A stretch of 64,000 bases of DNA, from the NCBI GenBank assembly GCA_036172245.1, contig JAYWIR010000011.1, positions 2,232,001 through 2,296,000 on the forward strand, in the 5' to 3' direction. The notes under the pieces were generated by a model. The model had not been told where the DNA came from, did no database searches, and saw only the letters and a program-made list of their open reading frames with translations. The translations under genes were made by a program, and so were the position numbers. This document shows, piece after piece, positions 1-59,399 of the stretch; positions within the stretch are counted from its first letter, which is position 1, and every line of letters starts with the position of its first letter. This DNA comes from Raillietiella orientalis. Lineage: Eukaryota.

Positions 1-717
1 TTCAAAATGATTGAGGAGACCACCCAAAAAAAATTTCATGATGAACTTAATTGGATGATGTCAGGAATGTTTATATTCTTCGTGTTGAAATGTTCATTTA
101 GTTTTCCATGTTTTTTAATCTTTTTGAGCAGGGACTTATTGTGTAAAAATTACTAATTTTATCTTTCAGTTGCTTTAGAATACTTTGTGGAAGTTCATTT
201 TTCAATACTACTTGGAAATCATGTATTTTGGCATTTTGCATTACTTAAAATATAAGCATATCCTACAGATATTAGTTCTTTTTAAACCCAATTCAGAATT
301 GTGACCTTTTGATTGTGACCATTTTTGTTTTAATGCTTATAGTCATACTTGCTGTATTGTACGTTGATGCCATGGAATTTTCCAAATGCTAGGAACTTTT
401 TAAGGAAGGAAAGTAAATCATGAATAAGTTCATGAATGAAATTTTCCTTGTTTTTGTAATGTGATCACAAATTCCGAATTTCAGCAAACCAATTTCGTTT
501 CGAATCGAAAATTCTGCAATAATTTAAAACGAAAAAAACTACATGTATTAATTTTTTCTCACATCATTTTAATCCATTGTACTTGAAATTCACTATAGCA
601 CCATGCTTATGCTTGCGAAATAAAAAAATTCTAGAGTTAGCGCCCGTTTTCCGGAACTTAAATGACTGATTGAGTGTTTTTTTTTGAGCGCCCCTCCTAA
701 TTTTAATTTTTTACAAG

Positions 718-1631
718 GTCAAATCACTGAAGAATTCAGTAAATCAGCCAAAGATGCTGCAGAAAGCTTGAGTGATAAAAGTTCCAAGTTGGCACAAACA
801 AAGCCTGTACAGTCTCTCGTTCAGGGTGTTAAAGCAGTCAAACAAGAAATAGATGAATCCACGAATTATAAAACTAGCGTTTATCACCCTCCTGAAAAGC
901 TGCGATTTCGAAAAGAACCTGTAGGAAATGAAAGTTTCTGGATAAAAGCTAATGTAAATGCAACTCAAGTTGAATTACATAAAGATTCTCGTCTCTGGGA
1001 AAGCTGGAAACATTTCAAAGACCATAATCCATACATCAATAAGGTTTTGGATTGGAAAACTCAGTATAATGAAAGTGACCATGTGATCATCCGTGCATCT
1101 CGCCATCTCACAGATCGTATAAGTGACCTATTTGGTGGAATCTTTCAGAAAACTGAAATGTCAGAAGCACTCACAGAAATTTGTAAACTTGATCCTGATT
1201 TTGATAAAGTGTTTTTTTTGCAGCAGTGTCAGTTTGATATCATTCCCAACGTATTAGAAGCATTAATGCAAGGAGAACTTAACATTTTGCGTGACTGGTG
1301 TCATGAACCAGCCTACAATGTACTTTCTACGCCTATATTAGAGGCAAAGAAACGTGGCTTGGTGTTTTCATCGAAAGTACTAGATATTAGCAATGTAGAC
1401 TTGTTAATGGGTAAAATGATAGAACAAGGCCCAGTGTTGGTTGTTAATTTCCATGCCCAGGAGATACACTGCTTGCGTGATCATCTAGGAAGAATAGTCG
1501 ATGGAAGCTTAAATAAAGTAATCAAAGTAAACTACGTGTGGGTGATGTGTCGGGACCCTGTTGAAATTGACCCTAAAGCTGCTTGGCGTGTAATGGAAGT
1601 AGGGAGTAATTCCATGGATCAAATGTTATGA
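718..1631 (+). CDS. TIMM44: Mitochondrial import inner membrane translocase subunit TIM44, last coding exon (5' exons not resolved)
   Basis: Translation has TIM44 hallmarks (LHKDSRLWESWKHFKDHN, IRASRHLTDRISDLFGGIFQKTEMSEALTEI, DIIPNVLEALMQGEL, MGKMIEQGPVL, AAWR). The ORF-track start at 684 is intronic: branch-like CCTAAT and T-tract, then TTACAAG|GT acceptor at 717/718 (phase 1). Stop TGA at 1629-1631. Confidence 0.95.
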
Positions 1632-1714: not shown

Positions 1715-3732
<2,018 letters not shown>

Positions 3733-4197
3733 GACAAAATTGCAATGATTACATAGGCACACAACTCGTGAAGCACTCGAATTTTCCCGATGCAGGTGGG
3801 AAAGTGTTAAGGGTGAACCGAATACTGACCTGTGACTCGTTCAACAGCATGTCTACGCCCTCGGTGGCCGCTCACCAACGTTCGGATGCACTCCCGGCTG
3901 GAAACTGCAGCTTCACCGACACGCTTGCCAGAGGAATGCGCGTGTCGTCTTTCATTTGTGGCAGAGCACATGCGATCTTCGTCCAACTGCTGATGTGTGC
4001 ATACCAGATAGGTGGCATACGATCCCCGCTTCAGCCTTGCTGAGCTGTGGATTTGCCGGAAACACGAGGAATCTGTGAGCTCCTGTATCTTACGGATCGC
4101 ATTCTTTTGTTATTCTCTTTCTTGCGAACGAACATCAGCTCCCATATCTCGCGGACGACACTCTGTCTTTTGCTTTGCTATTATCTTGCTCTGCTTT

Positions 4198-4272
4198 GTT
4201 TGTACGTGTGTGTGTTTTTTTGTTTGTTTGTTTGTTTTTTTTTTTTTGGCTGTGTGTGTGTGTGTGCGCGCG
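4198..4272. repeat. Compound (TG)n/(TTTG)n/poly-T microsatellite
   Basis: Directly visible simple repeats. Confidence 0.85.
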
Positions 4273-4499
4273 TTTTGTCATTATAACGCAGTGAAGTAGC
4301 ATTAATGAGACTCCAACTCCTTGATGCTACCTCGCTGCGTTCTGGCCGATGGCCAAGAGGAGCCCCACTCCCACACATGCCAGTGCCTAGTGATTCGTGA
4401 TATTGCGCCACTTTCTGCTTATCTACTGCCGTATTTCCCGGTTTCGGCGGACGAAGGCACCCGAGTGGTGCTCAAAAATAGAAAACTTTTGCAAAATCC

Positions 4500-5745
4500 A
4501 AGCAAAATGAACCAACTGCAGTGGGAAATCTTCGGTTCACCGCCGGAATATGGCAACAGCAGCTTTGGTTTCGTGTCCTCCTAGAGAATACGTTATTTTA
4601 TACCTCCGAAAGTGTAAAGCATAGAGGAAATGCATTCGATTGGCTAAGGCAAGTTGAGACCACGTCGAGGCCACACTATATCTGTGCTCGCGTCCTGGAT
4701 GTGCAATACGTATACTGCATTTAACAAATTGACACCAATAAACTTCGAAGGCTTGACATTTCTGCTTTGCAATAAGCGGAATAATCGCAGAATATTTCGT
4801 CATCCAATGACAGCTTAATGAGAAGGTTGCTGGCATAGATATGGCAATTTTTGATGCGTTGCAGCCATCACCGAATTCAGAAACACGACTTTTTTTTTGA
4901 AAGCATTTTCTAGCATGGCACTCTACTCACTTTCACCAAATAGTTGGTACACAAATAGTTACTTGATCGTTATTTCGAGATGATTATTAAACTTTGATTA
5001 ATTCGGCTGCAGAACCATTTTCGTCTATATCCTAGGTAAGCCTCAGTGAGTTAGTTGCCCGTGGATGAATTCTGGATAAATCATCAATTGCAAAAAAAAA
5101 AAAAAAAAAAAAAGGAAAAAAAGAAGCTGTTTCTTTGATGGGTGTAGCGTACCAGCTACACAAACCATGTCGTTTGAAAGGTGCATTGAATATACGCGAC
5201 TATGTGTGTCGACCAATTGAAATCGCTCCCAAACTGTCTGTATGCAAATGAAAAATGCAAATTGAATTTGCATGGAGATCATGGGAAAATCTATTGGCAA
5301 CAGGAATGAAAGTTAACAAGGCTGCGAACATGCTGAATGAATTTGCCGGAGTGTATGCAAAGTTTAGATGTTTTCCATCATTATCACGGCAATGATAACG
5401 TCCAGAAGAATGTCACCATGGTGACACACGCAATGGAGCAAGCCGTGCACAATCCCATTGCTGATTTTGATTGATGCCGATAGTGGATTCGATTTTTTTC
5501 TTAGGCACTTTTTTCTGGATGCAAACACATTCTGCATTCGAAATTAGTTCTGATTTATGGTTTTGCTGCAGATCATGAGTTGTTACAGTAGGAATCTGAG
5601 ATTTGAAAAGCATCGGGAAGCGTGGGTTCCCTTGACTATGGTGCACGTCGAATTCCATGAAATCTCTTTGAAAGAGATAACCAGTTCCTTCAAAACTTTC
5701 ACGGGTCGATATTTTTCGTGTAATTCTCCGATGAAGAGTTATCAA
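4500..5745 (-). mobile_element. Heavily decayed DNA-transposon remnant, possibly ISL2EU/Harbinger-like (SWIM/YqaJ-type ORF and DDE ORF traces)
   Basis: Minus-strand fragments SAYCKAEMSS...FLYALHF and FPMLFKSQIPT...ISNAECVCIQKK resemble these families. They are broken by stops and frameshifts. Confidence 0.3.
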
Positions 5746-16759: not shown

Positions 16760-17100
16760 GTGCTCGAGGAATCACGTCCGAAAGGAGGATGGCCCACGCA
16801 AGGTCAGCTCCCGCGAAGCGCCCCCGCCCTCTGCGGATCCACGCCGAGGCGTGCGGCGCCCTCCGCGTGCGACCCCGCGGCGCGTCTTTCCGCCGCTGGT
16901 CCTGCTGCTGAAGAGGCTTCGAGATGTATCTAATGTATTACCTGAATGAAAAAGGAGAGAGGGTGTACACGCTGAAGGTTGGTGTTCTTTTCCTGTTTTT
17001 TTTTTTTTTTTTTTTTTCCACAGCCGAGTTCGCAAAAGGTGAATCGATTCCAAATCCGTCGTTCGCGTAGAGTAACTCATCATTCGGATCAAATGGCGCC
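16760..17100 (+). promoter_or_regulatory. CpG-rich promoter/first-exon island of a spliced + strand transcript
   Basis: Short GC/CpG-dense island followed by an intron-like ~44-nt segment (GTTGGT..poly-T..CCACAG, ~16978-17022) and then CpG-poor AT-rich DNA. Confidence 0.5.
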
Positions 17101-17262
17101 CAAAACTGTTGTATTGTTCGGTAGTTTTCGGTGGCCTTTAACGAGGGATTTCACCGTTCACAGCGTTTCCCGCCCGATTTGGAATTAAGGATTTGTTTGG
17201 GAACAGTTGGAAAGTTTCGAGATTTGGGCACCGGCAACCTAACTGTCGTGTATTATTTCCAG

Positions 17263-17305
17263 AGCATTGATCCCAATGGCAACAAAACATGTTCTGCACA
17301 TCCAG
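17263..17305 (+). CDS. Small exon with putative start codon (MATKHVLHIQ)
   Basis: CCTAAC branch-like site, TATTTCCAG acceptor at 17262, ATG at 17276 and a consensus CAG|GTAAGT donor (phase 0) at 17305/17306. The downstream partner exon is uncertain. Confidence 0.45.
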
Positions 17306-20300
17306 GTAAGTGATTAGAGGTGTTATATGGTGGTCACTGAGAACCAGCAGAATGCTTCCCCTTAAACATCGCCGGTTTGTATTGTAATCACTGTTTTGAT
17401 CATTTCAGCTCGATTCAGTCCAGAAGATAAGTATTCCAAATACAGAATTATAATCAAGAAACGCTTTGGATTATTACCTACCCAGCAGGCACCAGTTGTT
17501 TATTGAGGCTCAAAGACTTTTCAGGGTGTATTTTATATGCTGTTGTATGATGAAAAACATTAACTTAATAAAATTGAAGTTTCTGCCTTATAGGCCCTAT
17601 TTTGCATCTCTGCTTTCATTGAAGAACTAGTCCATCTGAAAGCTGTGTCAGAATAGTAAATGGGCATATTTCAATTCTGATAAAACTGTTATGAAAAATT
17701 TCAATTTTACTCTGTGAAGCAGTGTTCAAGGGAACAGTAATGTATTTGTTAACACCCAGTTACATGGGGGGTAATGTTGTATTTGCAATAAAGTTCACGT
17801 TTTTTGAATTGTCAGCCTTGCTTTAATGAAAGTTTTGAGATGATTAAACAGGGCTGCTTACCGCATGTATTTTAAGGTTATGTTCAGAGCTTTATTAATT
17901 GAAACAAGACTGCATAAGGAACTACAGTGATCCTGGTATCGAATCTTGGCAAATTATGTTCCCATTAGTTGGGTAGTCATCTGATGTGTAAGCCAAGTGC
18001 CAAAGTATGCAGTGTTTTAAACCAATGTGTTCTCTGGTGTCAGTTATATCAAATGAATCAGAAATCCTAATGCCAAATGTAGTTCGCAAATAAATTGCTA
18101 TATTTATGATGTATTAAAATTACATTTAATGTATGATTTGCACATGTTTTCAAGTCTGTTGGGTTTGTTCAGGATTGATAAAATGCCAAGGAAAAGCATA
18201 AACTGCATGGAAATATGCAATGCTTTGTGAACATGCAAACAAGTAAAAGACTTTCAGAAGCAGTGGTTGTTCAAAGGAAGCATTTTTGAATTGATTTTTT
18301 ACAAGTCATCAACTACCTACTATCAGAAAACACCTGATTTTGTAATATCTCAAATTTCTACACTTTTGAGGTGCTGATTAAGCATTGTGTTTAATGTTGC
18401 CTCTTGGTTATGTAAGAAAAATGTGCTGCTTTAACTGGAAGTTTTGGGCATGATTCAGTAACCTGTAAAGAATTAGCATGTCAAGATTGCATTTCAAAAT
18501 GTTAACTTTATTGTGACCACCGTTGGAACTGGTATGATAGAAAATTTGATGATAATCCAATAAACAAAAATAAAGAGTCTTCACTTTGGAGATGTTCACT
18601 GCCATTAAAACACATGCATTTCGCCCGCGGGAGATGACTGGGAATTATTTATAAAGTGCATTTGCCATTCTTTGTGTTTATTCTTTTACCAAGCATCAAA
18701 AATGCAAGTCCATTAGTTGGCACTTATGGATTTTGGGATTTGGACGACTTCACGTAGGGTTACAACGATTAGATTCTTCGTTATTACCAGCTTTGCTTAC
18801 TGTTTGCGTTCCTTGTTAAATGAAACGAAAATTTCTGTCACATCAGTCATAAATCCTCCTAGCCTGAGAGGATGATTCATGTTCTGCGCATCCTACCCAC
18901 GATGCTCGTAATGATTTTTCATCATCATTCAAAATGTAACGATTTGACTGGCAGTGCGTAATCTGCGTAGTGATCCAGGCCCTCTTTCTGCAAACGTGCT
19001 GCTGGTCTGTTGCATGGTAGAGAAAAGAGATTAACAGTGGGCTGATCTAATTCCAGTCAACACCGTCAAGACGCAGATTTAAGTTCGTGACATCGACTGA
19101 CGAGTTGAGTGAGGTGATTTGGCTCGCCTCCTCTGCGAGGTGCCTTTCGAGTTCTTCCACAGCTCACCACTATGGAGAGATTTGGTGATCTCGAACACCT
19201 AGATGAGAAAAGTTACCAAGACCATCGGGGTTGGTAAACCGGTAGGCGTTTAAGCATCCTTGAAATGAAAGCAAGGTGATTGCACAACTGTGAACCTGCA
19301 GAACTCAGCAAACTTCTGTCTTTCGGAATTTCTTCTGCTCACGGCGGTTGACCCGTTGAACGGAGGTGAAATAAAGGGAAGCTCTTCGCCGAAAGCCGGT
19401 GAGATTCCGAGTGCCACGGAAACGACGGTGGAGTTCGTGAGGATGCTTTGAGACCCAGCCGTACAAAAACACATGGACGTCTAACGTGTATTTTGTAAGC
19501 AGTTTTCAAGGCTTTCAGGTTCCCTGTTTGTGAAGTGATGGCACTCCTGAGATCAGTTCAACAGGCATACACTATTACACTTGAATTAGCGTCTTTCTAC
19601 TGGGATCGTCTGGTTACACGACAGGTGAAAACATTCGTCGAACCAGCCATGTAGCTATAGACAGCTTTCACTCTCAGCATGCAAAGCAGCAAAGTAAAAC
19701 GTTGCTTTCATTAGCGTAATGCAGCGGGTAAAAACTACTCATTTGGTAACCTTGAAATTCATCCACAGGGATGCCAAGACCTATGCAAGGAGATGCATAA
19801 TATTTTCAATGCTGTGGATCAAGATGTGAACGCCCCAGACCAGTCAGAACAGCCCTACTTTGAATGGCAAATACTTTCAGCGACTGCGGTCAACCTCATC
19901 AGCATTTGTTAAACTTCTGCGCCGACTTTTTCCGTGTGCTGTTCTGCGTCTCCGTATACAAACAGACGTGGAAGCATCTGGAAATGGAGCACACGAGAAA
20001 CCTGAAATTGCACCGTTTCTCTGATCATCAAAGTACCTTCAAGGAATGCTAATGCGAATTTCAGCATTGACAAAACATCAAAATTGGCTAGCTTTTGATT
20101 GTGCATTTTCAAAAACAAAAATTCACAGAGCGATCCAAGGCATCGACTGCATGGAACCAATAAATCTATTAAAGTACTTTGGCTTACTAATTTCTCTCAC
20201 AAAATGGCAGTTAACCTTACATTCTTATGCAGCTTATGGAAGAGATGTACGAATTACTTCGGAATGCTGGCATATACTCGTCACCTCCCAAACAAATACC

Positions 20301-20739: not shown

Positions 20740-21877
20740 CTAGATTGAAAGAACCATTCGATTACTCTTGATAGAAATGGAAATCAAGATCAGTCGTGCC
20801 AATGCAGGTGAGAGGTTGTAGACTGTTGCTTCGGTGCTGGATGAACATTCTGCAGCTGGAAATGAAGTTTCGCAATTCCTTGAAAAGCTACGCACGTTGT
20901 GTTGTTCACATCGCTGGAGCTCGAAAGCATGATCTCCTGCTCTTTCATCGTTTCCTGTGCTGTTCATCATTCGCACAAAGATTTCGAAACCGCTTGTTGC
21001 TGAGGACATGCACGGCTAAGAATCGAGAACGAGATTTCCATACGACACCAAAAATAATTGCCAAGCAAGAAAATGTTTGGGTAATACTCTTTATTTGAAA
21101 AAAAGCATTCCGTCCATCAGGGGCACCACGTGGCAGACGGAATAAGTGTTCTCCCTGCGAAATGGCACTCAAACGAACCATTCTGCTTTTTGGGTTGTTG
21201 ATATATCTCTGAAAGCAAGACAGGGTTCCCATATGAGTTTTTGCCTGAACTAAATGCATGCAAAACAAAAACAAGTAGAACCACGGGATGAGAAAAAGGA
21301 GGAGTCGATTCGTTTCTATACTATTCTGCTAGGTAACACAGCTCGTGGAATCCCAAATTCAGAAAATTCTTCGATACTCGACAGAAAAAAAAAATAGCGG
21401 CAGGCAAAATCCTAAAAATGAATGGAATGGAAGTTTGTTGAACAGCTCGGTGGTCCGCGAAAAGAGTGCATTCAACGTGCCGAGGGCGAACGACAGCAAC
21501 AAAAGTGCAATACGCTGCTTTATGAAACGCAAAGTCGTGGCTTTCGAGGATCTGCTTCGGCCCTTGATTACGACATTGCTTGCCACCTTACGAACAAAAT
21601 GTCGAAAGCGTTGACATTTGAGAGATGGATTTCGATTTGGAACCGGCGAGGGACTGTTTCCCTTGCTCGCGACATCCACCAGGTGCGCTTCTTCCTCCCA
21701 CGATACACCAAGGTTTCGAAAGACTGAGCAAAAGCGAAAGCATTTCCTCCTCTTTTCTGCCTACCCACGTTCTGCGTTGTTCCGCAGTTCTTCCGGACGA
21801 GTAGTACGATACGCTATGTGTACAACGCGGGTTTCGCTCCGTACGACGAAAAAAAAACCGCGTTGTACGGGGTGACC
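20740..21877 (+). mobile_element. Decayed Tigger/pogo (Tc1/mariner superfamily) transposon with right TIR
   Basis: Traces EMEIKISRANAGERL*TVAS (CENP-B-type HTH), KIIAKQENVWVI and a C-terminal LTNKMSKA..EMDFDLE..RDIHQ. Ends in CGCGTTGTACGGGGTGAC, matching the TIR of the 57047-58065 element. Confidence 0.55.
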
Positions 21878-22305
21878 GGCCCCGTACAACGCGGCGAAGG
21901 AACGGCCCCTGGGCGCTGCGGATGAATTTTGATTTCGCGGCCCAGTGTCCGTTCGGCTGTTTATAAAAAAAAAAAAAGAATGTTTGGATGGATTAAGCAG
22001 GCTGAACTGTTGAACAACGAGAACAACAGAGAGCTGAGACCACAGAAACCTTCAAATCGGTTAACGAAATATCAGCGAAATTCTGAAAGTTTTTGTTTGT
22101 TTGTTTTTTCAATTCAAGTTACATAAGAAACACTTTTCATTATTTCCTTCTTGTTTTAAAGTGACGTGACAGATCTTCTGCTGTTCTCACGTGTAAGGTG
22201 TTTTATGTTTTTTAAATGAAGGAATCGGTTTATTTTATATCCATCATGTGATCCATGTATAACCACGGGACTCCTATAACGCAGAATGTACTCCTCGCGG
22301 TTCAC
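21878..22305 (+). mobile_element. Tigger-like MITE, copy without insert
   Basis: Starts CCCCGTACAACGCGG. Internal blocks AACAACGAGA, CGAAATTCTGAAAG and TTGTTTTAAAGTG and the right end ATCCATGTATAACC..CTCCTATAACGCAGAATGTA..CGCG all align with 57047-58065. Confidence 0.75.
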
Positions 22306-22950
22306 GAGACGGTCGAGGAGCTCCGCTGGAGAGACGTCCGGGAGGTCGGCGTCGGGCGCATCCGGACGTCGCCTGAGTGTCGCGCAGACGACGACGACGA
22401 CGATGACGCCTGCGTGCTGTCCCTCGGCCTCTTCTCCGGGGAGCACCTCGATGTCCTCCCCGGGGACCAGCGCACCCTATTCCGCCTATTCGAAGCCGCC
22501 TGGGACAGCTTCCTGCACGACTCGGCGCTGCTGAACCGGGTGACCCCCTCCTGCGAGCACGTCTACCTCACCCTGTCCGCCTACATCGAGCTGGAGCGCT
22601 GCGTGCGCCCCGCCATCATCACGAAGGACCTCTGCGTGGTCGTGCTGGGCCGCGACGGAGCTCGGAGGTCCCTGAGGCGGCTGTTCACGTCGACGGGACA
22701 GGGGCGTCACCCGTTCGAGACCCACCGGCTGAGCGGCGTCTACGAGGTGCAGCTGCGCCGCTGCACGGGAGCACGTAGTCCAGGGATGCAGCGCCGCCAG
22801 AGGCGGGTGCTGGACACCAGCGGGGTGTACGTGCGCGGCGAGGAGAACCTCAAGGGTTGGGCCCCCCGCGGCGACCACCTCCTCTTCGAGCACCAGTGGG
22901 AGCTGGAGAAGCTGACACGCCTAGAGCACGAGGTCCTTCTCTGTGTTTGA
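22255..22950 (+). CDS. unc-104: Isolated kinesin-3 unc-104/KIF1A-B tail fragment (DUF3694 region), 231-aa intact ORF; partial duplicate, chimera or retrocopy
   Basis: [39 protein letters not shown] and [44 protein letters not shown] are diagnostic of KIF1/unc-104. Homology spans ~22299-22935. No motor, FHA or PH exons were seen elsewhere in the window. AATAAA at 23018-23023. Confidence 0.9.
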
Positions 22951-23249
22951 AACACCCGAACTGTGTTGAGTGCTACACGAGGTGTCGTTCTGGACACTCT
23001 CCCGAAAATAAGGATTGAATAAAGATTCGCATACGAGTTGACTGATATCGTGTTGCGTTTTGAGGCTCTGCGTCGCTGACAGCTGCCTTCCTTGCCGATA
23101 GTTGCGTGATTTCAACGTCGTCAACACTTCGCCCATCATCTTCCCAACACGTGGTGTTTCACAAGTGTGTACTTCGAAATGCACAAGAGAAAAGACCCTC
23201 ACGTTCGCCTGCTACCCGCATATGACCCATCCTGACTGACGCATGGTCA

Positions 23250-32100: not shown

Positions 32101-35100
32101 GCTCTCTCCTCGGGGTTACGCCTGACTTCCCTTTGACTCCCGGCGGCCGCGACTGCAGATCCAGCCGTTCGTAGCAAAGATGGGTTGCCATCCGCAACGT
32201 CGCAGGGAAGAGAGAAGAGGAGAGTTGCCTCGGACCGTTCGGAGCAAGACTAACCTCTGACCGAGACGGATTGGAGGGGGAGGGGGGTGAGTCGCACGGT
32301 CGCGAGGAGGCTGGCTGTTCTTCAGGGGGGAAGCGGTTTCGGAAGGACTCCCAATGCCGGAAGATGGGGCAAGGTGGTACTGCCCCGACTGACGGGGACT
32401 GACTGTGCGTTCCCTCCCGGATGCGCAGCCGCCCACGGTCGAAGACGGTGGTGGCGCGCTCCCGAGAGGGGCGCCGCCGCACCTTCGGAGCAGTCGCCGG
32501 CTCGTCGCGGGCGGCCGCCGTGCGCTGCGGCTACGGAGTCTCGCGGGAAGCTGCCCAGGAGGCAAAGGAGGTGGCCCGCCGTCACCCTGCAGGCCGTTCC
32601 AGGGGGATGGCGGCTGCAAGAAGGCAATCGGCCATTCGAAGGCCCGCGCCGTTACTGACCAATCAGAGTGATGCAGGCCGCGGATCGGCGAGCGGAAGCG
32701 TCCGAATCGCAGATGTTCACCGAGCGGAGTGTGTGAACCGCCGCGGAAAAAGGGTTGCGTGCCGCTCTCCTTTGAGGAAACGGGCGGGCATAGAAGCCGG
32801 GGCATCCAGGGGATTCGGGGATCACTTCTCTCCTTTAATTAATGTTCCCCGGAACAAAGACGAACCTCTTTAAAAGGGACGCCGGGAGAGACTGGGCGTT
32901 GGTGTTAGCAACGAACGACTGCAGCGGACGCCCAAGAGTTCCTCGACACAGTGCAATCAGGAGACAGGAAGCGTCGCTTATGCTCAGCAACAATGAGGCT
33001 GTCAGTAGGGGCAGAAAGTCATAAACAGACGTAGGGACGGGACGGGGTTGCTGGGTACGGTGGTAGCTGCCACCTGAAGCAACTACCACCGAGTGAGGGC
33101 GCTGCGGCTGCTGCTGGCTGCACGGAGGATTCGACTGGGACTCCCAAACTCACGGGGGGAAGGCGTCGCTCCCGCCGCTCGTCCCCCGCACGATGGTGGG
33201 TCGAGGCAGGAGGAAGCCTGCGATTCGACGGGAGGAACATTCGCGAAGTGCTCCTCGAGGAGTAGCCGCGGATGGAAAATTCCGGGAGGAGTGGCGCGAT
33301 CTGTCCGGACCAGGTCTTCTCCTATGCCGGGAGAGGGGGGAACTCCGGAATTTCCCTGTTCTCCCGGTGTCCTTCCGCCAGCATTGTTTCCAACCGGAAG
33401 TGACCCGGCCTGGGTCAGGGGCAGCTGTCGGGAACGACGACCGCCGGCAGACCAGAGCGGAAAAATGGCGTCGTCGCGCGCTCCTCTCATCGGCCGCCAG
33501 ATGGCACGTTGCCATCGGCGGGAAAAACCGCCCCCGTCGCCGCCCATCATCATTTTCTGGGTGCCTCGGACCGTTCGGAGCAAGACTAACCTCTGACCGA
33601 GACGGATTGGAGGGGGAGGGGGGTGAGTCGCACGGTCGCGAGGAGGCTGGCTGTTCTTCAGGGGGGAAGCGGTTTCGGAAGGACTCCCAATGCCGGAAGA
33701 TGGGGCAAGGTGGTGGCGCGGACCCTCTGCTCTCGTCCTCGAAATTCACCCTCTCCCCCGTTGCCAGGAAAGGGGAGTGGCCTTTCGGAGGGGGGAGAGG
33801 CGCTTTTCGAGGGTGCATCGCGTCCAGTGATGAGCTTCGGGTGCTTTTACGGGGGAGCGCGGACTGGACCCGACGCGCGTGCGCACGAGATGGTCCGGCA
33901 GCCACCTGTGGACCACTTCCAGGGAGTCGAAAATCTCGTGCGCTGCACCCCGCTAGAGGGGGCGAGGAGCCGCCGGATAAAAATGGGTACGCGAGTGCAC
34001 CGGAAGGAGACGGCGCCCTTGGGGACCACGCAATGCCTGGTGGTCCGAACCCGCTTCCCCTGGCCCCCGAGGGCGCGCTCGTTTCCGAAAGCGCTGCGGC
34101 TCCTACGGTATCCGAGGTGGACAATTTCCCCTTCCGGCCTCCCCCGAGGGCACGTCTCACTCTCTCTCCACCAGAGTCACGGAACGTCTTCTGCCCCTCT
34201 GACCGAGAATGCTCCCAGCTGCCTTTTCTGCTCTCGTCCTCGAAGAGGAGCGCCCCCCTTTTCGGACTCCCCCCTAAACAGACTGCAGGGAGTGACCGAT
34301 CTGCCAGACGGTCGCGACTTCCACAGCGATGGGGAGGGGGCACGGCACTGCCGGACCCATATCCAACGTGCTGCGCGCGGCAGGCAGCAGCCCGTCTTGG
34401 ACAGGGTCCCTGGGACGCGGCGCGCAGGTCGACGGGAGGGGAGGTCAAGCGGACGAAACCCTAAAGCCCAGCTTGGACGTCGAGCCGTGCGCGCGGCTCC
34501 AGGTAACGCGGCTTTGAATCCCGCCCGGGGGAGGGTCGGTGTCAAGAAATGAAGGGGGCGGTGAGTGGGCTCCGAGTCTTCCCCGCAGGGTGACGCCGGT
34601 TGGCCTCGAGTGGCTTCGGGTAATGCCCCCGTCGACTACTCGGGGCTGGAAGTCGGCCTTGAATGCTCCTTCCGGTATCCAGGAAGTCCTTCGAGGTTCC
34701 CCTCCGTTTGTGGAAATGGAGCCGTCCTCCCTCACCTCGGCTCTGAGACCTCTCCGAGGCACCTCTTGTGAAAGGTGACTTTCGCACAGACCCTTCGCAC
34801 ACACCCCGTCCGTCTTCGTCAGCCATACCTTGGGGGGCTCGCTCTCCACGAGACGGAGACGCGACCTCGCTCGCGGCAACCGGTGACGCTCTCGTGACCG
34901 CGGGCCACAGGCTGACCGCCGCGACTTGGAACTGTCCACGACAGCGCGTCTCGATCGCGCGCGAGCGTCACTCGGGGTAGCAGATGCCTGCGGACGCGCG
35001 TGTGGGCCAAGCATACCCCTTGCGAGTGGCGCGGGAGCAGAGTCGATCCTTCGACGTCCCGGCGGCGGCGCTCCCTGAAAGTTACGCAGCTACGGTGTCG

Positions 35101-51373: not shown

Positions 51374-53769
51374 TCAGGAACAGTTTCTAAAGCAGCCTAT
51401 CGACAGGCTTTTCCTATTGGGGTGAAAACACTGGTAATAAACTAGCATACATGCGATTCCCGAGAAAAACAAACAGTAATGCATTGCAAATACCAGTTGG
51501 TGCAACCAAAGCTTATCGGAGACCCTTACAAACCACAGTAAGATGAGAAGGGTGTTCTCTACCAACATCACACCATAATAGGTGACGTAACGAATGCGAG
51601 TGCGGGTGTCCTTTACGTTGAAGTAACAGAAAATGTAGGCAAATCCCACGACAGCATCGAAGAACAACTCCTCGACTCGAGAACTGCAAGCAGCCGTTTT
51701 CTGTACCATCAACCATGCTGTCATGAGTGTCCAGTGAGCTGTTAGCACTACAAAAATCCAATAGCCGTAAGTGGATGCAAAGAGTGCAAGCGTCTGAACA
51801 CGTGAGGCTGAAATTCACAAAAACATGTTAGCTGCAAATTTCAGGGACGTAGAAAAAAAGACCGCGTGCACTTCCGACAACGGAAACGGCCAAACATCTA
51901 CAGCAACCAGTACATAATTACGCAGACGGTGATACATAGCAAGTAGAAGTAAGGTATCCGGACGAAAACTGAGATTTCACTTCGGGAATAATTACATCCC
52001 GTACGTTCAAGTCTTGGGAGAATGATGCCGGCAAGGATCGGCGAAACAAGAAAAAAAAAATTCTGGCAATCATGCACCACCTTTAACCTGGCTTTCTTGC
52101 TGCAATGAGATGGAAAGCACGTGCAATGCAGGTGATGGGAAAGTAAAATAAAAAAACAAAAACAAAAACACGCAAAATGCTGTTTCGTCTTGATTTGCTC
52201 TGACACCGTTTCCATTTAAAAACAAAACTTCACTTTCCAAACAACTTAAATGGCACCATGACGTGCAGATTATGACAATTGATATGATTTTCATCCCAAT
52301 GATTTCAAAGTGTTTCGTCTCGGATGTCATTACATGGCAATTTACACTTTAAAATGTGAAGTCAAATGTGCTTTTATAGTAACACTGCATTTCACAATGC
52401 TTTTCTCCAAGCACACAAGAAACAAACAAACAGTGCATAGATCAGGGGATTCTCTAGGAATTAAAAAGTATCATAAAAGAGGCTTCCTGTGACTTCTCAA
52501 CTTTCCAATGAAATTCAAAGGAAACCATATAATAACAGAATTCGCATCATAAAAAAGGAAGGTATTATCCATGACAAAACATGCAATTCAACAACACGGG
52601 CCAAATCAAATATTTTTCAGAAAAATCCCCGAATACATAAATGGTATGCGAATAGTTAAATGTCAATAGATTGATGCCTGTTTGAATCTTTAGGTCTCTG
52701 TCCTTATTTCTATATTTACCTAAGGTGAGGAAATGCCAAATAGTCTGGATGACTAATCCACAGATGGAAATATTCCGTTTTCTTTGATCACAAAACCGAT
52801 TAGCTCTCTGATAGGAAGTTTGTGACCATGATAAACTAACCAAAGAACTAAGTATAGCTAGGATTTTCAGACAAACTGAAAAAAAATTAAACCTTGATCA
52901 AAAAGTATTTGGAATTCTAAATCACAGCAACTTTTTTTTTACCTACTATGTTTTCTGATGACTTGAATAAATCAGGTGATTCCCCAAGCAAAAAATGTAA
53001 CTGGATCAACAGCTGTGGGGCAGATTCCATAAAGCTCTCAAATAATCGCAGAAGAGCTGCATCAGCATCTTCAAATACCATCAAGCTATAATAGTGAAAT
53101 CTAACTTGTGGATCCACACTTTGGTAACACTTCACTGCATATACCAAGGAATCTACATATCTGTTTGAAAAACATTACAGAGTTCAAAAAGAAATTCTAT
53201 ACCTAGCTGAAAATTATTATTATATCACTGGAAAAAAAAAATCATCTATTACAACTACTAACCCACCTTAAAACTGGTCCCAACTGCAAAATCAGTAAAC
53301 AGATCCTCAGAATCCATTTTTGAAGGGAAACTACAGGTAACATGGGATTTCCTGTATCATTAATGTACCTAAAATTGTTGGGTACATCGTTAGATACCTG
53401 CATCAACAATGAATCAGATTCTGGAATCAAATTCCATTGCTCACGACAAAGTTAACTTCAAATTTGTTTTCAAAATTCTACATGTGCATTTCGGAAATAA
53501 CATGCATTTGCTCACCATCGTAAACTAACAAGGGTCATCACAATTGAAGGAACCACAACAAACATCAAAGTCAGACTGAAATACCACATTTGATTTTTGG
53601 AATAATAATAATATGCTATAAACAAATCCATGAAGATATCGAAAACGTAGCTACAAATTGAGAACACAAGAACACAAACATCCAAAGCTCCAACATGTAA
53701 AGTGTTTGGGATTGCATCCACATTATCATTTTGTATCATGGGATTATCGGATGGATTTTCTTGATCCAT
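51374..53769 (-). CDS. Xkr: XK-related protein (Xkr phospholipid scramblase family), 5 exons, 387 aa
   Basis: Exons 53769-53516, 53368-53267, 53160-52943, 52875-52720 and 51807-51374 total 1164 nt, phase-consistent and GT..AG. Motifs SYVFDIFMDL, QLGPVLRYVDSL, EDADAALLRLFESFMESAPQL, YIFCYFNVKDTRTR and YYQCFHP. Confidence 0.95.
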
Positions 53770-54820: not shown

Positions 54821-57463
54821 TTTTAGAAAAGGGAGCCTAATGAGCTTTCCGGAACAGATAATGGTTATGAAATGCTCCGAGGCGCATGCAGAGGAAGATA
54901 TTCACGAGAGGCAGAGGATTACGGACCACTGGACCCTGGAATTTTTCAGTCAGCAGATTTCCAATTCAGGTATTTGAAAATTATGGTGTGAAACTGTTAA
55001 TTGTTTGAAAGCTAACCGGCGAAATACCGGCAATTTTTTTCTTGCAATCATTTTCGCTTTGGCCTGCCAGTTTGAAGCCTTCTGGGAAATAAAACCCGAA
55101 GATCTAACCGCGCCCACTGAAGAGTATCAAAACTGTCGTCTGCGGTGCATGGCGACAATTAAGGGCGGAATTTTAGTAAGATCCGGGCATGCAGATTCCC
55201 TATCCAATAACTGTGTTTTTCTGAAATCCATCTTTTCATCTTTAGTATTCAAATTAAAGTTTGCTTTTTTTTTTTTAAAAAAAAAAAAGGAAAAAAAAAA
55301 CGAGTTTTGATGTACGGTATCTTACGTGCACTTTCCTCTTGCAACTTTCTGTTCAAGAAAAGACATGGGAAAGATGAAGATAAGCGTCCCTTCTCCATCT
55401 TGTCCCCACATAACTGTATAGGTAACGATATAGCCATATGAAAGGGACTTGAAAAAACAGATCAGGGTACTCCTGCTAAGAGAGAATGATTAATCCACTC
55501 CATCGAGGATGGGTGGTCTAAAACATTTGTTTGATCACAGGAAAGCATTACTGATGCTGCAGCTGGACTATGTGGACGTGCTAAGAGACTTTGCATCTGT
55601 TTTCACAAGAACCATCTTCCAAATGGCAGTAGGCGTCAATAGAATAATGCAATTATTAAAAGTCACACGAAGCAATGTGATCCTATAGGTGCATAACTCA
55701 AATGTATGTACATTTCCGAAAACGTTTTCACCCTCCAATGGTGAGCATAATGAAAAGCAAATGAACTTCACTCATTGAATTTTCAATTTGCTACTGGAAT
55801 TCCTCTAACTGAGCTACGGCGTTGAGGATTCAGATCTGTTCAAATGCTGTTTCGACTTGTTTTTAACAGAAAACGTGTGAGGATGCTTGCACCGTCACTT
55901 GTTGATTCAGAATGTTCGATATTCAAAATGATGGATGGAAGGCTTTGCGGGTATGGACCTACTCTCGTACTGCTGCTTCCGATCAACAGCAGCAGGATTT
56001 TCTTTTCCCCCAAATATGTGAGAACAGAGTGGTTGCTTTCGTTTCTGCCAGGCAGAAGAATTCCGATCTCCGAGAATTTCTTTCACGAAGTTTCACGAGA
56101 TGCACGTTCTTTCCCACGATTCCTCCTTGGTACCCATAAATGAGAATTCCAAGATCCTTCCGAAAGGTAAGTAGTTTCAAGGAAAGCTACTCCGTCTATG
56201 CAATGAAAGACATCACAGAACAACCGCGACTGTTTACGACTCGCAGCTCCTATTTGCAATCTTTGTGAATGAAATAAGCAAAACTGCAAAGACGAGGTTA
56301 CCGCGTGATTTCCTGTCTGTTTGATTCATATTTTTGAAGATGCACTTAAGCCAAGCATCTTCTAAAACGTGAAAATCAGTGCTGAAAACACCTAAAAGAA
56401 GAAATCAACACTTCTCTGGAGGGGAATAAACAAGGAGGGCCTTTCCTCGTCCTGCTTGTATCATGTATGGGGCACAGCGAGTTTATGAGAAGCAATAAAT
56501 CCCTTTGCAGATTCCTCTTTGCCGAGTGTCTTGTAAACTTCTCTTGTTGGATAGCAAGAAGCAGTCGGTTCCCGTTATGGGAGATACATTTAATCTCCCA
56601 GTTACAGCACGAATCGTAAAAAGGCATGGAAACTGAATAAGCATTTACTTGTAATAACAAGCATCGCAGTAAGCATTTTACTCGTGACCCTCCATGCCTG
56701 TAGGAGGCGTTTTTTCCTCGAGTTGGGCCTCTCGAATTCGCTTCTCCTATCTTCAAGAAGCTTTTCTTCCTCGTCGTTTCCCCCCCTTTTTGAACGGACC
56801 AGAAATGCATTTCTCCTCGAAGGGCTGATAAGAATGGTAGTCAATGCGAAGACCATTGCAGCGGAGCACCCCTTCAATGGGTACCGAAGTGACCGAATTG
56901 GCACACGTCATTTTGAGGGAAAGGGAAGCGCGGGGTCATGCTAAAGAACACTCCGCCCGTCCGGATTGACCGTAGATGATCCGAAACCTTCGGCCATAGT
57001 TCACCGTTTGCCAATTGCACTCTGGTGTAGTATGAATCCTACTGTACTGTAGACCCCCGTACAACGACGATTCGTACAACGCGACCGAAAAATGGAGACA
57101 ACTCTCTTATAACGCAGCAAATCAGCCAGCCCGTAGGACGCTGTGGATAATTTTAGTTTTGCAGTAAAAGTCAAGTTCGTATACTTTTTTGAAAAGAATG
57201 GAAGCTCATTATCAAAGTGGGCTCAACTCCAATTCATTCACATTTTCGTGAATGAAATAGCTCCTGAAAGTACGTTTTTCAACAACGAGAGGGATGGCCA
57301 AAGTCTACAAGAAAATCGTTTGAACTGATTAAGTAGCAACGAAATTCTGAAAGCTTCTCTTTTTTCTTATACTCTAATTTGAAGAATACACGAACACATC
57401 TATTTTTTGTTTTGAAGTGTACCTCATTATCCAACACTGCAGCCCTAACCTATGCAATTAACG

Positions 57464-57524
57464 AGTAATGTGCCTCAAAAAAGGGATTTCTTCGATAAAG
57501 AAAATATGTCATGCACCATTGCTA
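57464..57524 (+). tRNA. trnI: Mitochondrial tRNA-Ile(GAU) copy within the NUMT (presumed non-functional)
   Basis: Acceptor stem AGTAATG/CATTGCT, anticodon stem TTTCT/AGAAA with loop TCGATAA; short T-arm region. Confidence 0.8.
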
Positions 57525-57534
57525 AACAATTAAA

Positions 57535-57594
57535 TCAAAGATAAGCTAAGTAAGCTGATGGGCCCATACCCCATTCGTGATTCGTCTCTTTGAT
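57535..57594 (+). tRNA. trnM: Mitochondrial tRNA-Met(CAU) copy within the NUMT (presumed non-functional)
   Basis: Acceptor stem TCAAAGA/TCTTTGA, D-arm AAGCTAAGTAAGCT, anticodon stem ATGGG/CCCAT with loop CCCATAC. Confidence 0.9.
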
Positions 57595-57600
57595 CCACCT

Positions 57601-57950
57601 ATTCTTCCTCCCTCAGCTTTACTTGTTTTACCTCTAATCTTTTTAAGAACATTAATTAAACCTTCCACCAATAATTGACTAATAATCTGGCTTAGCTTAG
57701 AAATCAACACAATTTCTATGTTTTCCATCATCTCAACCCTACCCATTCTATTTTCAACACATTCCACGTTAAAATACTTTCTTATTCAAGCATCTTCATC
57801 ATTACTTTTCCTATTCATTTGTATCATTTTCAATTCCTTCCCCTCTATTCCACCATTCTCCAACCATTTCACTAATCATACTCCTAAAACCAGGCATAAT
57901 GCCTTTCCATTACTGACTATTACCGATCATCAACATCATTCCTCATGCTC
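57601..57950 (+). pseudogene. nad2: NADH dehydrogenase subunit 2, 5' fragment, frameshifted
   Basis: In the invertebrate mitochondrial code: NNWLMIWLSLEINT..TLKYFLIQASSSLLFL, then after a frameshift near 57865 LLKPGMMPFHYWLL. TGA occurs at conserved Trp positions. Confidence 0.92.
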
Positions 57951-59399
57951 TCCTTGCTGCGACGTCTTGCGTACATTTGAAATCTTCTACTGATGCCATC
58001 CATCTACAACTCATAGGGCTCGTATAACGCGGAACGTATCGCCCGCGTTATACGGGGGCCTACTGCCCTACGGAATCGTAATAAGCACACGTGAAACATA
58101 ATGAACGGTGTAATGGCAGTGCTTATTGATGATCACGTAAAGTTGGATAATTCTCGCAAGCGTTTTTCATCAAGCGTAGATCGCCAATGTTTGCAAACAT
58201 TACAAGCCAAATTTTGCTAATGAGGGATTTCCATATATACCCCACCATCGCGTGATTCTTGGATTTCCGCTCATTCTAAAACACGGAAAAGCCTTCTTGA
58301 GTTATGCTTTCCAATGGTCAGAATCGCTTTTTCATTTTCCAGTTCACGTCTTCCGTTGAACAATCGGATTTCCTTTCGCCGTGCACTGATGGATGCTTTT
58401 TCTTTGGTCTTTTCACGTTCTCTGGATCCTTTTGTTTCGTTTTGTTCGTTCAGAGCTTCAGCATTCTTCGCACTCTTTGTGCGTGAGAGATGCATTTTTC
58501 TATCTCATTGCAACTGTTTTTCATGGACATTTCGAGTGGTTGCCTTGTTTTTGCAGATGGCATCGATTGCTCTGCAGCCTTAATCGCTGAAAATGTCCTT
58601 CAGAGGATTTGCTTTCTGCAAGAACACCAACAGACACCTTTGCATTGGCACGAGAAGCTGGAGAATATCAAATGAAATGAAAGCTTCTGAGCTGTGCCGC
58701 AAGTGTGATTGCGTTGATCCTCTGACCGACGTGATTCCAGGAGGGAACTGCTCCATAGAGATCCACCTTGTTTTTTTCGATACTCATCTCCTGTAGATGA
58801 ATTCTCATTCTGGAGAAGACCAAGTCAAAAAGCCCCACAAAACGGACCGTTACGTTGAAAAGCTGATACCAGTTGTAACGAGGAGAGCTGCAGCACAACC
58901 AAGTCCAAAAACCCCCGAACGCCAAACCTGCAGAAAGCACCGACATTACCTGGGAAGATGATGTGGAAAAAACCACAGCTATATCTACGAGTCGTGCTTA
59001 CCATGAGCAGTCCCTATGAGCAGCCATTCCAAACCAAGGAATGGGAAGGACCATGTGACTGGCAAGCTATTCTGGATGTATGTGCGGAGAGTCCGAATTC
59101 ACATGATTCGTCTTTTTCGCAGAGGCTCGCTTTCGTCTGCGTAGCCGGGGGCGCAAAGTCACCCCGATCCGCGCGTGGACCACAGAATCATCAGGTTATT
59201 TCCTGAAGAGAGGCACTCAATTCGTATCGCTGCCTTTGTGCAAGCAAGAGTTGACCTATTTTCAAGGAAGTCGTGCCTCGGCGACAAAACCTGCAGCGGC
59301 AGTGCTTCCGGATAGAATCGCGTGGACGAGGAGCGCCCTTTTCCTTTTTGACCTCCGCTTTCCAAACCGAGAGCAGATTGTCTTTTTGAGCTCACACTT

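Follow-up and report, generated by a model that had tools for sequence, protein, structure and literature searches.

The chimeric open reading frame and its surroundings

The window, by which we mean the whole 64,000-nucleotide stretch under analysis (G000:C11:2232001-2296000), contains on its forward strand, at positions 22255 to 22950, an open reading frame (ORF) of 231 amino acids that runs without stop or frameshift, as a preliminary description of this DNA, made from its letters alone, had stated. The ORF is a chimera, namely, 15 residues from a MITE, 209 residues from unc-104, one inserted leucine and 7 new C-terminal residues. It is found within an old pogo/Tigger-type MITE, in DNA that is apparently intergenic, with the end of the Nop10 gene about 4.7 kb upstream. 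The latter gene occupies positions 16912-17506 (+), and its second exon matches the Pfam family Nop10p with an E value of 1.8e-11.

Other genes of the window are found in A+T-rich DNA: Tim44 and XK-related genes, both recognised with Pfam, at 666-1631 (+) and ~1854-3240 (-), respectively, and, at 51374-52900 (-), a gene recognised by eye that we take to be UDP-glucose pyrophosphorylase-like. In contrast with these A+T-rich gene regions, the segment from 27 to 39 kb has 62-69% G+C, which makes the window a sharp compositional mosaic. An exact 153-bp direct duplication, with its two units 1.3 kb apart at 32226-32378 and 33562-33714, was noticed in this G+C-rich block.

The host MITE and its family

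The left ~490 bp of the host element extend from 21807 to 22298 (+), in a family whose members measure ~505 bp; the left terminus is degenerate and was read by eye, and this start is therefore approximate. A profile constructed from 18 other genomic copies matches positions 21819-22299 (nhmmer, E value of 4.9e-63), and the match ends exactly at the junction with kinesin sequence, ~19 nt before the end of the element. On the other side of the kinesin-derived insert, at 22928-22943 (+), we found a 16-nt remnant of the right terminal inverted repeat, with a score of 17; 7 of 9129 background positions score as high, and the scores of 20 true ends go from 14 to 29. Since these 16 nt match the missing end of the element, the insert lies inside the right terminal repeat, and both of its flanks come from one TIR element, the left one with degenerate outermost bases. 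Where the insert begins and ends, the terminal repeat lacks about 4 nt when compared with the MITE consensus, which is not a true empty allele. The preliminary description had correctly seen a MITE end at this position but understated its extent, as the element is almost whole (~21807-22298) and resumes after the insert (22928-22943).

In an alignment of 482 columns with the family consensus, the copy at 22 kb shows 101 mismatches and has gaps in 81 columns, so that over ~400 aligned bases it is ~25% diverged; the median identity to the consensus of 19 MITE copies is 72%. The family comprises at least 40 right-end matches in the genome, and its ~505-bp consensus has matching ends. Among the 14 right ends that could be recognised, the next dinucleotide is TA in 5, CA in 3 and TG in one; TA also precedes 3 of the 4 recognisable left ends, and a TA target duplication is a feature of Tc1-mariner/pogo/Tigger elements. 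Moreover, a longer relative on contig C12 carries MITE ends on both sides of a 566-aa ORF with the domains CENP-B_N, HTH_Tnp_Tc5 and DDE_1. Based on these transposase domains we place the family among pogo/Tigger-type elements.

The C12 element itself (G000:C12, L063:2670-4900, with the ORF at 2943-4640, +) is full-length, with decayed ends and an open frame, and such an open 566-aa transposase frame in an old copy may represent a domesticated transposase. A second open DDE_1 frame, of 600 aa, was found at C16:2847194-2847760, without the ends of the MITE family.

A sister copy of the MITE is present in the window at 57051-58065 (+), and its right end is the one that the preliminary description had used as reference for a MITE end. 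This copy is broken by a mitochondrial insert at ~57440-57955, which contains an ND2-like frame (Pfam Proton_antipo_M, E value of 7e-4, below the cut-off); a search with ARAGORN detected no tRNA anywhere in the window, the region of the mitochondrial insert included. Long interruptions were seen in four copies among ~30 loci and the window. One of them (L039:1772-1956; G000:C10:4064952-4065132) consists of ~170 bp that are an inverted copy, 86% identical, of DNA located ~1.3 kb off, bracketed by an 11-nt repeated word, and its appearance is that of an ordinary cis Pack-TIR. Another (L043:1658-2133; G000:C20) is a ~475-bp interruption for which the genome search returned no second match, and which by eye resembles the C-terminus of the transposase of the family; this copy is probably a less-deleted derivative.

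The terminus of the 58-kb sister copy folds as a hairpin (z of -4.3; 0 of 200 shuffles). We considered such a hairpin as a hot spot for insertion, and rejected it because the mitochondrial insert and the L039 insert sit elsewhere in the element.

The insert is an internal fragment of spliced unc-104 mRNA

The insert, at window positions 22299-22928 (+), measures 630 nt and corresponds to a spliced internal fragment of the unc-104 mRNA sequence of this same genome. The parent lies on a different contig, C3 (G000:C3:4812937-4811888, minus strand). Within the region spanned by the insert the parent has three GT-AG introns of 61, 161 and 201 nt, and the alignment of the insert with the joined C3 pieces revealed that all three are precisely absent from the copy (3/3). 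Both ends of the insert fall in the middle of parental exons, and at either junction a single nucleotide can be assigned to the insert as well as to the MITE.

In a search of the 210-Mb assembly, which judging from its homologues is arthropod-like, the ORF matched, besides its own locus, only four pieces on the minus strand of C3, and the insert appeared as a single copy in searches of its own genome. The parental gene is intact, with motor exons upstream and with matches that reach residue 1639 of the homologue. On contig C11, by contrast, none of 64 kinesin-motor matches was found, and the window holds no further convincing unc-104 exon, the sole other tblastn row having an E value of 0.58. 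Therefore, the exact loss of introns, together with the presence on C3 of the motor exons and of the remaining parts of unc-104, indicates that the fragment was copied from a spliced mRNA, and does not belong to a gene with dispersed exons. The reading as an ordinary unc-104 exon, which the preliminary description had named as an alternative, is thereby ruled out. The same description had proposed to locate the parental unc-104 by TBLASTN and to compare intron positions; this comparison demonstrates the retrocopy that it had suggested as possible, and its remark that no other kinesin exons occur in the window agrees with our searches.

Two other kinesin-related observations were made in the genome. 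First, near-identical matches to the kinesin motor occur at G000:C2:3990495-3991497 (-) and 4022396-4023398 (+), ~31 kb apart, and are probably an inverted duplication. Second, a 43% match to the C-terminal (PH) region of unc-104, with two internal stops, is found at G000:C25:2541789-2542100 (-), and may belong to another PH-domain gene or to an older fragment.

Among the best 120 listed homologues, most of them named unc-104, the amino acid identity of the ORF is 64-69%. The Pfam family DUF3694 was detected in ORF residues 15-134 (E value of 3.9e-24), covering profile positions 32-148 of 149; the first 31 positions are absent, that is, the domain is cut at its N-terminus. The motor, FHA, KIF1B and PH domains are all missing from the fragment. 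In a flea homologue of 1671 aa, its counterpart is the segment of residues ~1167-1371, in the middle of the stalk. Thus, the origin from the DUF3694 region of unc-104 had been rightly recognised from the beginning, but the designation as a kinesin-3 tail fragment was not accurate with respect to the tail.

The insert and its parent differ by 18 substitutions, 11 synonymous and 7 non-synonymous, and by one 3-nt insertion at 22486, which amounts to a divergence of 2.9% (97% nucleotide identity) and a dS of 0.072. These differences are difficult to reconcile with an assembly artefact, whether due to cDNA contamination or to a mis-join, and so are the presence of the MITE in register on both sides of the insert and the flanks, for which no second match was found in the assembly, with searches that skip very common words. 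We consider such an artefact barely credible.

The longest word common to both flanks is 4 nt, and we therefore recognise no target-site duplication (TSD) around the insert; nor is there an A-tract at its 3' junction. Accordingly, the insert shows the exact intron loss of a classical LINE-made processed pseudogene, but neither its TSD nor its poly(A) tail. An origin by target-primed retroposition of the LINE type, internally primed and of the so-called tailless kind, would nevertheless find some basis in the internal mRNA fragments, truncated at both ends, that are described as LINE by-products by Noll et al. (2015, PMC5322556). However, tailless copies are defined there by TSDs of 8-35 nt, whereas in our case the common word does not exceed 4 nt and bases were lost. 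A related alternative is capture of the fragment in connection with transposition of the MITE itself. Since the insert is 3% from its parent and the MITE ~25% from its consensus, the insertion took place long after MITE transposition; this gap in age, as well as the occurrence of the insert as a single copy, does not fit a capture at transposition. We regard these routes, taken together, as highly improbable.

Origin of the chimeric reading frame

Both ends of the ORF are transposon-derived because the MITE lies on each side of the insert. At the 5' end, an alignment of 20 right ends and the profile alignment assign the first 15 codons, including the ATG, to the MITE (22255-22299, +). These codons match the MITE end of the sister copy at 57998-58050 with 32 of 41 nt identical (blastn), and the local score of this match is 60, whereas none of 5774 background windows scores above 43. 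The claim that the first ~15 codons align with the right end of a MITE, and that the ATG comes from it, is in full agreement with these data. The family majority has ACG at the position of the ORF start, followed by an in-frame TAG four codons on; the open frame of the copy at 22 kb arose by mutation, namely, the change of ACG to ATG, a 1-nt deletion, and absence of the TAG. An in-frame ATG at the phase of the junction exists in 2 of the 19 other MITE copies, in 7 of 57 cases when the three phases are considered, and at 36% of random window positions. The ORF start lies in a weak sequence context (T at -3). A minimal upstream ORF, which consists of nothing but an ATG and a stop codon (22246-22251, +), is located 9 nt upstream of the ORF ATG in the same frame.

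At the 3' end, the stop codon (22948-22950, +) belongs to flanking DNA just past the MITE end, and an AATAAA at 23018-23023 (+), 67 nt after the stop and also in flanking DNA, is a candidate poly(A) signal, such that the novel stop with an AATAAA ~70 nt downstream, as reported earlier, is indeed present. An AATAAA within 100 nt is found for 4.5% of window positions, and either AATAAA or ATTAAA within 300 nt for 20%. The in-frame ATG, the in-frame indel and the AATAAA speak in favour of a function, but we take them to be modest coincidences chosen after the fact, and uncommon ones when taken together. A splice acceptor had also been attributed to the MITE end. What we could find is a pyrimidine-rich AG that ends at 22161 within the MITE; such sites occur ~3 times per kb in the window and no upstream exon is known, and the claim comes down to a common motif.

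The strongly GC3-biased codons of the ORF had been listed among the signs of a gene. The bias is real, with a GC3 of 0.86 for the whole ORF, but in the unc-104 part the value of the copy, 0.895, equals that of the parent, 0.894. Thus, the codon bias of the copy is explained by inheritance from its parent, and GC3 was discarded as a mark of selection. Predicted structural models had a mean pLDDT of 48.6 for the ORF and of 36.7 for an 871-aa homologue, and a fold search gave no match at Z of at least 5, the best being 3.7; none of this was used as evidence. Among solved structures, none was matched by sequence.

The candidate poly(A) signal also bears on the possibility that the locus is a transcribed non-coding chimera, either on its own or by read-through from a neighbour, which would act at the RNA level, for instance by means of small RNAs against unc-104 mRNA. 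The 97% identity to the parent would suit such an action, and some Pack-TIRs are transcribed along with the flanking transposable element, according to the survey by Tan et al. (2021, PMC8277862). Yet Nop10 ends ~4.7 kb upstream, and no host gene was found around the insert, since the six ORFs that we compared with Pfam in the interval from 20.0 to 25.5 kb matched none of its families. Non-coding transcription with a role of this sort is, in our opinion, very unlikely.

Selection and age of the insert

Comparison of copy and parent yielded a dN of 0.015 and a dS of 0.072, i.e. a pairwise dN/dS of 0.21. A ratio of 1 is rejected (P of 0.0015), and against a null of 0.5 the result is borderline (P of 0.066), in a comparison that includes the constrained parent. 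The preliminary description had proposed this ratio as a test, with a value near 1, combined with lack of expression, pointing to a young pseudogene. Pairwise, the ratio is not near 1; on the branch of the copy, neutrality is not rejected (P of 0.07-0.44). Synonymous changes were assigned to branches from the G+C state, with no close outgroup, giving 5 for each branch and 1 ambiguous, and we estimate that ~12-13 substitutions have taken place on the copy since its insertion. Under eight neutral mutation models, the probability of at most 7 replacements among 12-13 changes is 0.10-0.44, and that of at most 6 among 12 is 0.07-0.23. Likewise, the chance that no stop appears after 13 substitutions is 0.63-0.79. 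The frame is therefore intact because the copy is young. The contrast between an intact ORF and neighbouring transposon remnants riddled with stops, which had been taken as a sign of a gene, does exist, but it is explained by age, 3% against ~25% of divergence.

The nature of the changes was examined with two sets of homologues. In the first one, which includes 23 distinct segments from 120 listed homologues, mostly of Diptera, the substitutions V32G, S86F, A156T and G174R alter invariant residues (for G174, 22 of 22 ungapped). In the second one, which consists of 35 more distant proteins, V32 is conserved in 24 of 25 ungapped sequences and S86 in 29 of 29, whereas A156 varies, with T in 2 of 27 ungapped sequences, and one sequence of 25 has R in place of G174. 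None of the 23 segments and none of the 35 more distant proteins carries the inserted Leu78, which falls in a conserved motif around residues 78-88. The new N-terminal 15 residues, in turn, have a match in none of the 155 homologues, none of which is closer than 69%.

These data bear directly on the reading of the locus as a newborn gene, in which the MITE would provide promoter, 5' UTR and start, and the flank the stop and the poly(A) signal, for a 231-aa DUF3694 fragment devoid of motor. Its product could act on proteins that bind the stalk of Unc-104 by serving them as a decoy, which is conceivable given that a binding site for the partner NPHP4 is located in the DUF3694-containing region of KIF13B (PMC5290278). 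The open frame, with its ATG and stop and an AATAAA at plausible spacing, the excess of synonymous (11) over non-synonymous (7) differences behind the dN/dS of 0.21, and the fact that the sole indel is in frame, all speak for it. However, constraint on the own branch of the copy is not significant, invariant residues are altered and a leucine was inserted in the motif around residues 78-88, positions 1-31 of the 149 of DUF3694 are missing, the start context is poor and preceded by an ATG-stop, and none of the 155 homologues, the closest at 69%, shares the new N-terminus. On balance, a newborn gene is very unlikely. A more elaborate version, namely, a gene caught at birth in which an RNA-templated, Pack-TIR-like patch turned coding, with promoter, start and peptide ends supplied by the MITE and with a product that would titrate partners of the Unc-104 stalk, is likewise very unlikely.

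Based on these results, the proposal of a chimeric gene encoding a motor-less tail module does not find support. Youth and inheritance explain the open frame and the codon bias; 4 of the 7 amino acid changes and the insertion affect positions that are invariant in the first set of homologues, and the start of DUF3694 is lost. Judging from the sequence, a function of the ORF is unlikely.

Probable patching of a break with cDNA

The explanation that we favour, and which we hold to be quite probable, is that the locus contains a young and probably non-functional retro-fragment, whose origin would be the patching of a break with cDNA, and whose ORF would be drifting. A germ-line double-strand break would have occurred in the right terminal repeat of the MITE, which is a palindrome in intact copies, and it would have been patched through end joining with cDNA templated by unc-104 mRNA, most likely produced by a LINE reverse transcriptase working without its endonuclease. 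That the hairpin terminus was the cause of the break is a guess, and the 1-nt microhomologies at the junctions are no more than expected by chance. The patching would have taken place long after the MITE had ceased moving. A chance ATG in the decayed MITE would then have been in frame with the insert, and the frame would have stayed open as only ~12-13 substitutions struck the copy, which may now be drifting.

The locus is a clean example of an internal fragment of spliced mRNA inserted without tail or target duplication, and it shows that an intact, GC3-rich orphan ORF can arise without selection. It also belongs to a class of RNA-derived inserts that was filtered out in the main survey of animal Pack-TIRs (PMC8277862). 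Moreover, of two copies of one MITE family separated by 35 kb, one contains a cDNA and the other a mitochondrial insert, which are both donor types listed for break patches by Onozawa and Aplan (PMC5110952), and this makes the window an instructive case. If expression and constraint were to prove true, the ORF would instead represent a chimeric gene of very recent origin, whose start and ends derive from a transposon, and possibly a modulator of a neuronal motor.

Comparison with known systems

The insert shares features with four previously described systems. First, like processed and tailless retropseudogenes (Noll et al., 2015, PMC5322556), it has lost its introns, lacks a tail and is truncated at both ends; unlike them, it has no TSD of 8-35 nt and does not represent the 3' end of an mRNA. 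Second, like chimeric retrogenes (Baertsch et al., 2008, PMC2584115), it has gained new N- and C-terminal residues in frame from flanking or transposon DNA. However, the chimeric retrogenes of that study were chosen on mRNA or EST evidence, whereas ours is known from sequence and shows no significant constraint.

Third, single-copy Pack-TIRs arise by gap filling independent of transposition (Tan et al., 2021, PMC8277862). Their filler sequences measure 100-5000 bp and are more than 90% identical to the parent, and our insert, with 630 nt, 97% identity and a unique parent, falls within these values; in both cases one TIR element is found on both sides, the gap is small, the insert is single copy, and it was acquired after transposition. 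In contrast with that set, the present insert is RNA-templated, and the study excluded intronless copies of multi-exon parents, which is the reason why the insert cannot be filed as a Pack-TIR. Furthermore, Pack-TIR cases are mostly intrachromosomal with breakpoints skewed to the interior of the element, whereas here the parent is on another contig and the breakpoint is ~20 nt from the terminus. A small search of the open-access literature brought up no other case in which a spliced cDNA lies within the terminal repeat of a MITE and gives rise to an ORF.

Fourth, class-2 templated sequence insertions include spliced cDNA and mitochondrial DNA among their donors (Onozawa and Aplan, PMC5110952). 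As in these insertions, the template of our insert comes from a distant locus that stays intact, in this case the parent on C3, and there is neither a TSD nor poly(A). Class-2 insertions also show small deletions at their junctions, to which the ~4 nt missing here with respect to the consensus may correspond. They are described as human polymorphisms, whereas ours is known from one assembly, of an arthropod-like genome; and, unlike those descriptions, the acceptor here is the terminal repeat of a MITE and an in-frame ORF results. By analogy with these cases, the way in which the insert works resembles that of a class-2 templated sequence insertion.
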